A stretch of DNA of 51,950 bases, from positions 1 to 51,950 of IMG/VR virus record IMGVR_UViG_2909303794_000011, one strand, 5' to 3'. Position numbers: made by a program. The DNA comes from a virus. Lineage: Duplodnaviria; Heunggongvirae; Uroviricota; Caudoviricetes. Positions 27,001 through 30,000 of the stretch are shown here, piece by piece (position 1 is the stretch's first letter; each line of letters opens with the position of its first letter).

Positions 27001-30000
27001 ATTAACATCGCTCTTGAGCAAAAAGGGTCCGGGAATTTCTCAGCCTGGGTCATTGAAGCCTGCCGTCGGAGACTAACGTCAGAAAAGAGAGCATATACAT
27101 CAATCAAAAGTGATGATGGATGAACATCCCGGTTTCTTCCACCATCGCACCGGAAAAGCGACTATGAGGGTAACCCTGCGTCTGTCAGCACAGTAAAACC
27201 CGGTGTGCATCGTTTTTGATTATTCCCGCACACTCACGCAGAAGGAATTCCCCGTCGGGCTACGGTCATGGTTAATGCGGGAATACAGCGACGATACTGC
27301 GCATGATGTGTCAGACTTGAATACCCTTATCGAATCCCGGTAATAAAAACTGTCCCTGTCTCTCCAGGCGTTTCAGCTTTGCAAGCAATTGAGGTTTTTT
27401 CGTTCTTCCCCAGCGATTGAGCAGCCGGCCAGACATACTGGCGACATCCTTCTCTTTCATATACTCCAGCATTATGGCGTTGCGTTCTGCTTCATAACTT
27501 TCGCTGTACTTACGGAGTTCTGCTGACATCCAGTTAAAGGCATTTATATAGGCCTCTTTAACGGCGTCGGCTTTTGCGCCATTAAATCCCATGACCAGCA
27601 TAACGAAGCCACTAAAGTCCATGCGGTAGTAAATCTGTTTCTTGTCGAAAATCCCTAAGTCATTGATTTTCTCGACGGCCCAAAAATGGGTTGTCGAGAA
27701 TTCCTCAGAACATCTCAAACATTTAATAGCCCTAATCACATGCTGATGGCGTTTACCAAATGCCCTGGCAATCTGGAAGGTGTCAGTTACCGGTTGACCT
27801 TCTGCTGCGGTAACTAACTGGCGAAAGTCGAAGTCATGATTCGCAATTAATTCATTCATGGCGTTGCCTGCTTCTTTGAAATGAACCTTTGCCGCACAGG
27901 AAACCAGCCCACCGAGGCTCGCCAGCACTAACTGGTATCCTCAAAGGCCCATTCCAAAGGGTCAGGTTCGGTGTTTATTGTGCGCTGCGGTGCGCGGTGA
28001 AATACCTATACAAAAACGCCCCGCATCTGCGAGGCATTTTCCTGAAAGTCACTTGTTAAATTTCAGTGAAATTAAAATTATTTTAAGCACTGCGTCCTGA
28101 TGTACTCCTGCAAGTAGTTAACCTGCGCGGTTATCCTGTCGATTCCACTTCGGAGACGGTAATAATTGAGTTCAGCATCTGCTGTAAGTCCTGGGCTTTC
28201 TCCATCGCCCATGCCGCTGGCTCCGGTCTTTGACTTTGCACAGGAGGCGGAGACTTGCAGGCGCTTACGCCCAGCAGAAACATCAGCACGGAGACTTTCG
28301 ATAGTCGCATTAGCATCAGCAAGCTCCTTTGTGTATCTGGCGTCAAGTTCTGCTACATCACGTTGCCGCTTCTGCATATCAGCGATGATGGATGTGGCTT
28401 TATCGCGCTGCTCTTTGTAGGCGATGGCGTTATCACGGTAATGATTAACAGCCCATGAAAGGCAGACGATGATGCAGATAACCAGAATGGAGATAATCGC
28501 GGCGACTCTGCTCACTGATCTATCCCCCAACAGGCTAATGCGCTTTCCTGGTCACGACGAATAACCTGTCCATAGCAGTTATTTGAACGTATGCGGCAAT
28601 CGCGCCCACCATCTTTTATCCACCAGCGAATCGCCTCGCATGCACCTTTACGATCACCGGCATTCAGCCGCTTATAAAACGTCGACGGGAAACACTTACC
28701 GGGGCCAATGTTATAGGGACAAAATGACGCGATACCCGCTTTCTGTGGTTCGGTCAGTGGCACTTTAATATTGCGCTCCACCCATGCCAGCGCCTTATCC
28801 CGTTCAATGGCATTAACCTGATCGCATTTTTCCTTCGTCAGTTTCATGCCAGGAATAACAGGTTTACCATCCACCATCGTGGCCCCTCGACAGATGGTCC
28901 ATATGCCGGAACCATCGCGGTATGCCGTAGTGTGGTTACCCTCTTTTTCATCCAGAAACTGGTCAAGTATCTCAGGAGCAGAGGCGCCTGCTCCAATCAG
29001 CGCCAGAACGGCCGCTGACAGGCCGTATTTGATTTTTGCGTTCATGGATATTTATCAGGATTTATCGGTTTCTGAACCCTGGATATGTTTATCTGTCCCG
29101 GCCTGTTGAATCAGGCGGGGAAAAGGTAAAGACAATCAAGAGGATTATTTATGGACAATAACACCATTTCTCTACAGGAGTTGCTCGACTGCATTTCAAA
29201 GCTTCGGGATGATGTAAATGCCCTCACTGTTGCATTTTCATATTTGGCCTTATCAATTCCCAGAGAACAAATGCAACCAACACTGGCATCGCTCCTGCTT
29301 GAATCACGCAACCCCAAATGGTCCCAGGAACAACAAAATTCTTTCAAGTGGCTGGCGGCATTACTGGAAGAAAAATATGCTGGTAAAATTACCATTTCAG
29401 TGGAGTCTTCAGAGAATCAGTAATTCTTCCTGGTAGCTTTCCTTTGTAGGTTATCCACACATTCTGCGCCTCTAAAATTACGGGGCGCTTTTCCGGCGAC
29501 TGCTCATCCCCTTCACAGAACCCGGCTGCAACTTCCAGGAAGACCTGTCTGATGCTCCTTCTGGCTGCTACCTGAACCGCCCCGGAAATCCTGGAGACTA
29601 AACTTCCTGAGAAAGAGGTAAACAGGATGACTAAAAATACTCGTTTTTCCCCCGAAGTCCGTCAACGGGCAGTTCGTATGGTTCTGGAAAGTCAGGGCGA
29701 ATATCACTCACAATGGGCGGCAATTTGTTCCATTGCTCCAAAGATTGGCTGTACGCCGGAGACTCTGCGTGTCTGGGTTCGCCAGCATGAGCGGGATACC
29801 GGGGCGGTGATGGTGGACTCACCACCGCTGAACGTCAGCGTCTGAAAGAGCTGGAACGTGAAAATCGTGAACTGCGCCGCAGTAACGATATCCTTCGCCA
29901 GGCTTCCGCTTATTTTGCGAAGGCGGAGTTCGACCGCCTCTGGAAAAAATAATGCCGCTGCTGGATAAGCTGCGTGAGCAGTACGGGGTCGGACCGGTAT

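Follow-up and report, generated by a model that had tools for sequence, protein, structure and literature searches.

Within a 51,950-nucleotide stretch of a tailed-phage genome (IMG/VR record IMGVR_UViG_2909303794_000011, positions 1 to 51,950; hereafter the window), a copy of an IS629-type insertion sequence (IS) has a truncated orfA, the first of its two transposase genes. We are confident that this copy is a genuine but non-autonomous IS629-type member of the IS3 family, disabled because its run of five G (G5) is now one base short, and that its ends, its frameshift signal and its second gene, orfB, are intact. A first-pass annotation of the window, made from the sequence alone, had flagged an apparent 1-bp deletion in this element, and our analysis followed up that claim.

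An IS629-type copy with four G in orfA

The element (29573..30881, + strand) runs from TGAACCGCCCCGG at 29573 to CCGGGGCGGTTCA at 30881, a span of 1309 bp. Judged from its sequence, it is a member of the IS3 family and of the IS629 isoform group (IS629/IS1203/IS3411 type), which also takes in IS1203v. Among complete E. coli genomes and Stx phages there are thousands of 1310-bp copies to which it is 96-98.5% identical (96.2-98.5% over the full length), and the matched copies are annotated as 'IS3 family transposase, programmed frameshift' with an accompanying 'AL1L pseudoknot' feature. The phage VT2-Sakai copy (AP000422), which is explicitly labelled IS629, is 1310 bp long, with 25-bp inverted repeats, an orfA of 327 nt (108 codons) and an orfB of 891 nt. 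By the ISfinder convention, isoforms share nucleotide identity above roughly 90-95%. The window copy was 96.2% identical to VT2-Sakai IS629 and at most 98.9% identical to other copies, the comparison being with these copies rather than with the Shigella sonnei type sequence. Its left terminal inverted repeat (IRL, 29573..29597, +) aligns to the annotated 25-bp IRL of IS629 in AP000422, and its right terminal inverted repeat (IRR, 30857..30881, +; reverse complement TGAACCGCCCCGATTTTCCTGGAGA) aligns to the annotated IRR. As in other IS3-family elements, these repeats of ~25 bp are imperfect, and the element starts with TG and ends with CA. Directly abutting it on either side is a target-site duplication, ACC (left copy 29570..29572, right copy 30882..30884), a length within the 3-4 bp characteristic of the family. 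Excising the IS together with one ACC in silico restored a 114-aa DUF1327 open reading frame (ORF).

The flagged deletion lay in a G-run at 29801-29804, and the loss of one G had been proposed to explain both a shortened OrfA and an element one base shorter than the 1310 bp of IS629. Positions 29796-29810 read ATACCGGGGCGGTGA, with four G (G4) at 29801-29804 (+). When we aligned the window copy with six reference IS629-type copies, its sole indel was one base missing in the run that follows ACC, and a wider alignment agreed. Most intact copies have G5 here; among the three intact 1310-bp references, VT2-Sakai IS629 and O145 RM9154 read GGGGG and O157 380-94 reads GGGAG. The reference IS629 thus has a G5 run and a 108-codon orfA, not a G4 run and a 72-codon orfA, and the length difference also held, with VT2-Sakai IS629 and other intact copies all at 1310 bp. 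To ask whether the copy had decayed elsewhere, we used a panel of 82 full-length copies (51 distinct sequences) from the loci collected in the analysis. The window copy had a private base state at 0 positions across the element, inverted repeats included. His27 and Ala32 were considered as private decay mutations and ruled out, both being common to intact copies.

The effect on orfA is as first described, a stop after 72 codons. The truncated ORF (29627..29845, +) begins with ATG at 29627 and consists of 59 native codons and 13 out-of-frame codons before a TGA at 29843-45; the deletion falls at codons 59-60. Autonomy would call for an intact 108-codon orfA continuous with the frameshift site, and here orfA ends after 72 codons, with its tail out of phase. 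The displaced 3' part of orfA, which holds the leucine-zipper region (29806..29952, +), is in the -1 frame when counted from the orfA start and lacks a start codon. This tail frame is open from 29791 to a TAA at 29950-52, ending on a run of six A (A6) at 29944-49. Its earlier description as an open, zipper-encoding frame that ends on A6 was therefore correct, but its designation as the +1 frame was not: tail codons start at 29803, not 29804, and it is the ribosome that, after the deletion, would read the original +1 frame. This is a matter of labelling only. No ATG, GTG or TTG occurs in the tail frame after 29791, and we accordingly rejected an internal start for the orfA tail or for an OrfAB protein lacking the helix-turn-helix (HTH).

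Inserting one G in silico produced a 108-aa OrfA that is 100% identical to that of an intact, PGAP-annotated chromosomal copy from E. coli O18, so a single lost G does account for both the length and the truncation. This G-restored OrfA differs from VT2-Sakai OrfA at 4 residues and places L76, L83, L90 and F97 at the seven-residue spacing expected of an IS3-family leucine zipper. The Pfam domain HTH_Tnp_1 (75 positions) matched the restored protein over profile positions 1-74 and the truncated protein over positions 1-52 (residues 1-59).

The remaining parts of the element are intact. The A6 run (29944..29949, +), the slippery site of the programmed -1 frameshift that links orfA to orfB, is present, as in homologous copies annotated 'programmed frameshift', and an ALIL pseudoknot frameshift stimulator (29907..30023, +) matched Rfam RF01497 over the complete model (positions 1-117) with 120.9 bits (gathering score 50; E = 1.7e-32). 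The uninterrupted orfB (29952..30839, +) encodes 295 aa comprising HTH_21 and the rve DDE catalytic core characteristic of the IS3 family; its Pfam matches were PF00665 rve, at 93.6 bits, plus HTH_21 and rve_3. With the orfA tail in frame 1, orfB in frame 0, an A6 run and a downstream RNA stimulator, the arrangement is that of IS3-family frameshifting. On one metagenome contig the same OrfB, residue for residue, stands next to an intact 108-aa OrfA; between that copy and the window copy there are 14 substitutions besides the one G. A conceptual OrfAB (G restored, -1 shift at A6) matched the whole NCBIfam profile NF033516 (IS3 family transposase) with 364 bits, against a cutoff of 160.

Transposase supply and mobility

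OrfA combines a DNA-binding HTH with a leucine zipper, and the transposase is the OrfAB fusion produced by a programmed -1 frameshift in the last zipper heptad (bioRxiv 10.1101/2023.06.07.543989). In the window copy, the G missing from the run at orfA codons 59-60 shifts the reading frame, such that translation from the orfA ATG would yield a 72-aa peptide that keeps the N-terminal HTH region and lacks the leucine zipper. Ribosomes would halt at 29843-45, ~100 nt short of the A6 slippery site, and would never reach it in frame. Given a stop before A6 and the wrong frame, neither full-length OrfA nor the OrfAB fusion transposase should be made. OrfAB would require the HTH, the zipper and the DDE core, joined through the -1 frameshift, and OrfB by itself has no end-binding domain. 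The sequence therefore suggests that this copy has lost its transposase.

Because its ends are intact, the copy should still be a substrate for OrfAB from another IS629 in the same cell. By analogy with IS3-family biology, it would be inert alone and dependent on transposase supplied in trans. A review of work on IS629/IS1203v describes OrfAB acting in trans to drive excision of a transposase-less IS629 derivative (bioRxiv 10.1101/2023.06.07.543989).

The clean ACC duplication, the lack of private substitutions and a junction found only here indicate a recent, simple insertion. The deletion itself is more likely to have been inherited than to be new, having come with the donor copy or through recombination with another G4 copy, since the occurrence of G4 on the same His27 haplotype in other assemblies (see below) makes it most likely that the deletion predates the present state of the window copy. 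Had the deletion already been in the donor copy, mobilisation in trans would be implied. Similarity along the element is a mosaic, with the 5' 360 bp O18-like and the middle identical to O145 and O157 copies, a pattern that fits frequent recombination among IS629 copies. A bolder reading, to which we give little weight, is that the G4 allele marks a non-autonomous IS629 sub-lineage that is still spreading, via OrfAB borrowed from intact copies or by gene conversion. If so, the window copy would be a natural example, caught in place, of a frameshifted IS3-family element mobilised in trans.

Mutation or sequencing error

Several points weigh against reading the copy as a genuine mutant that depends on transposase in trans. 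IS3-family transposases, such as that of IS911, prefer to act in cis, so mobilisation in trans may be inefficient. It also assumes an intact helper IS629 in the host; the scan covered the 51,950-nt window, in which this is the single copy and no second IS629 was found. The exact 66-nt segment carrying G4 occurred in no complete RefSeq E. coli record. The lesion, moreover, lies in a G5 homopolymer, and the same locus was found in no other assembly against which it could be cross-checked. When complete E. coli genomes and phage records were searched across the junction, solely uninterrupted flanks or unrelated IS copies were returned, the exact 29-nt junction pattern had no match in viral, genome or metagenome contig collections, and an exact look-up of the 67-aa ORF spanning the right junction also gave no match. 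Since the junction was seen nowhere else, the length of the G-run at this locus is without an independent reading.

The homopolymer site and the locus without a cross-check would favor an explanation in which the missing G is a homopolymer sequencing or assembly error and the real copy is an intact 1310-bp IS629; that the copy is otherwise without defect or private substitution would fit such an error as well. Against it stands the recurrence of the same frameshifted product in independent assemblies from several projects. ENA contig ERZ21883251 NODE_1791 encodes the exact 72-aa product three times, and one of these instances is a full-length 1309-bp copy that aligns without gaps to the window copy. 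Eight contigs, taken from several NCBI assemblies and one Logan assembly, encode a one-residue variant with the same frameshift, and most of them carry 552-bp IS remnants adjoining katP or mcb genes on IncFII-type plasmids. At its 5' end the window copy has an uncommon haplotype, His27 (matched at >=99% by 134 of 6096 E. coli records), and the E. coli records with this haplotype have G5 in all cases among the matches listed. In other public assemblies, the G4 allele is carried on this same His27 haplotype, which is more in keeping with inheritance or gene conversion than with a read error arising by coincidence.

Two further observations argue against an error. Pattern counts in IMG/VR gave G4 in 5 stretches (with other IS629 sequence backgrounds) and G5 in at least 120, and the G6 variant of the run, which should also appear if homopolymer noise were common, was absent from that collection. 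To gauge assembly quality, we counted homopolymer indels against the related prophage in O103:H2 strain 12009, for which ~10 kb was informative and the remainder too diverged. In this ~10 kb of well-aligned neighbouring prophage genes there were no coding frameshifts, and the two homopolymer length differences from the relative were both intergenic. The G4 pattern was absent from a one-genome-per-species collection. Together with the empty 66-nt search, this means that the G4 allele is rare in those collections, and such rarity is no help in deciding whether G4 at this locus is an error. Overall, the indirect evidence of the same frameshifted product in independent assemblies and of unbroken neighbouring prophage genes makes a sequencing error unlikely, and we leave that explanation a slim chance beside a genuine deletion.

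The conserved 552-bp G4 remnant of the IS629 5' end, present in several independent assemblies, adjoins katP/cytochrome b562 or mcb genes and the IncFII repA. Recombination with this plasmid remnant could have supplied the G4 allele.

Accepting the deletion as genuine, the 72-aa HTH-only peptide might itself be functional, for instance by competing for IS629 ends or by damping transposition as a regulator, and the allele might be kept for that purpose. The recurrence of the allele at several loci in several assemblies and the retention of most of the HTH_Tnp_1 domain speak for such a role. However, most occurrences are degenerate 552-bp remnants with further indels, suggesting plasmid hitch-hiking rather than selection, and comparable frameshifts at many other positions are about equally common. 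In addition, the Pfam match ends at profile position 52 of 75, and in IS911 the leucine zipper is needed for stable end binding. We consider a functional peptide very unlikely.

Least credible of all is low-level autonomy, in which occasional -1 slippage at the G-run, ribosomal or transcriptional, puts orfA back in frame and the A6 frameshift then yields OrfAB: a -1 shift there would restore the frame exactly and the downstream signals are all intact, but two successive rare events would be required, C CGG GGC does not have the X XXY YYZ form of a slippery heptamer, no stimulatory structure is present at the G-run, and four G is far shorter than the runs known to allow transcriptional slippage.

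Prophage setting and comparison with other IS629 copies

The IS splits a DUF1327/YdfR-family prophage gene into a 3' part (29389..29572, -) and a 5' part (30885..31045, -). The ORF reconstructed for the empty site matches PF07041 with 141 bits, and the uninterrupted flank is found at 99.4% identity in many E. coli genomes, annotated as YdfR family protein. This 114-codon gene belongs to the lysis cassette of a lambdoid prophage, with the P21-type holin (31050-31373, -) on one side and the lysozyme (28512-29045, -) on the other, and the IS is oriented opposite to the split gene and to the late operon. The presence of the IS in the lysis cassette (28512-31373, -) may have a putative polar effect on lysis, affecting release of the phage that carries the cytolethal distending toxin (cdt) genes.

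The cdt operon is complete and occupies the left prophage end (1-2209, -), with cdtC at 1-573, cdtB at 570-1391 and cdtA at 1388-2209 (Pfam CDtoxinA and Exo_endo_phos). The interval from cdt to the tail fibre gene contains two type III effector-like genes, cif (3333-4184, -; PF16374) and an NleH/OspG-kinase-like gene (4408-5298, -). Toward the other side of the window is a full-length DSR1 anti-phage defence gene (within 46717-51950, -; PADLOC Dsr1, 2727 bits, residues 1-1274), adjoined by a P4-type tyrosine integrase at the right window end (50727-51950, -), and this region may be a separate defence islet that abuts the prophage. The related O103:H2 12009 prophage (NC_013353.1; locus L016, 21466-22792) has an intact IS629 elsewhere, in a Rha-family regulator gene, and it seems that IS629 has targeted prophages of this family repeatedly.

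In practice, the window copy is best annotated as an IS629-type pseudogene or a non-autonomous element rather than an active transposase gene, and it should not count as an active IS629 in strain typing by IS content or in predictions of genome instability. The split lysis-cassette gene, in a prophage with cdt and type III effector genes, could bear on phage inducibility. Beyond annotation, the significance of the copy is small.

Frameshifted copies are not unusual among relatives of this element. The arrangement of a 108-aa OrfA and a 295-aa OrfB was intact in 66 of the 82 full-length panel copies. The indel rate was taken from unselected copies in the viral-contig (IMG/VR) panel: among ~70 copies gathered regardless of integrity, via a search for the G5 pattern, 8 had small indels at various sites, about one in nine. 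Among other IS629 copies (loci L017-L136) we also saw recurrent lesions, including a 4-bp orfB deletion (alignment columns 584-587) at several loci, an A6 slippery run shortened by one A (column 375) and an additional A at column 291. Indels at such varied sites indicate that frameshift decay of IS629 is routine, and a frameshifted, non-autonomous IS629 copy is an already known kind of event, namely ordinary IS decay.

Compared with VT2-Sakai IS629 (AP000422), the window copy is alike in its ends, gene order, A6 and ALIL frameshift region and orfB, with a full-length identity of 96.2%. It differs in being one base shorter, with G4 for G5, in having an orfA of 72 codons instead of 108, from which OrfAB should be unmakeable, and in scattered substitutions, each of which is present in other copies. 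Two known copies are likewise 1309 bp long owing to a single-base deletion, with their ends otherwise intact, but their deletions lie outside the G-run: the E. coli 95NR1 copy, annotated 'frameshifted', lost a C from a C-run in orfA (alignment column 165), and the Stx2 phage PV07-173 copy lost one base in orfB (column 580). The G4 remnants on IncFII-type plasmids, next to katP or microcin B17-like mcb genes (loci L137-L142 and L011-L013), share both the G deletion and the His27 5' haplotype with the window copy, and their 72-aa product is identical or differs by one residue. These remnants, however, are mostly 5' fragments of at most 552 bp with extra indels, and all lack a target duplication, whereas the window copy is full-length and otherwise intact, with a clean ACC on either side.
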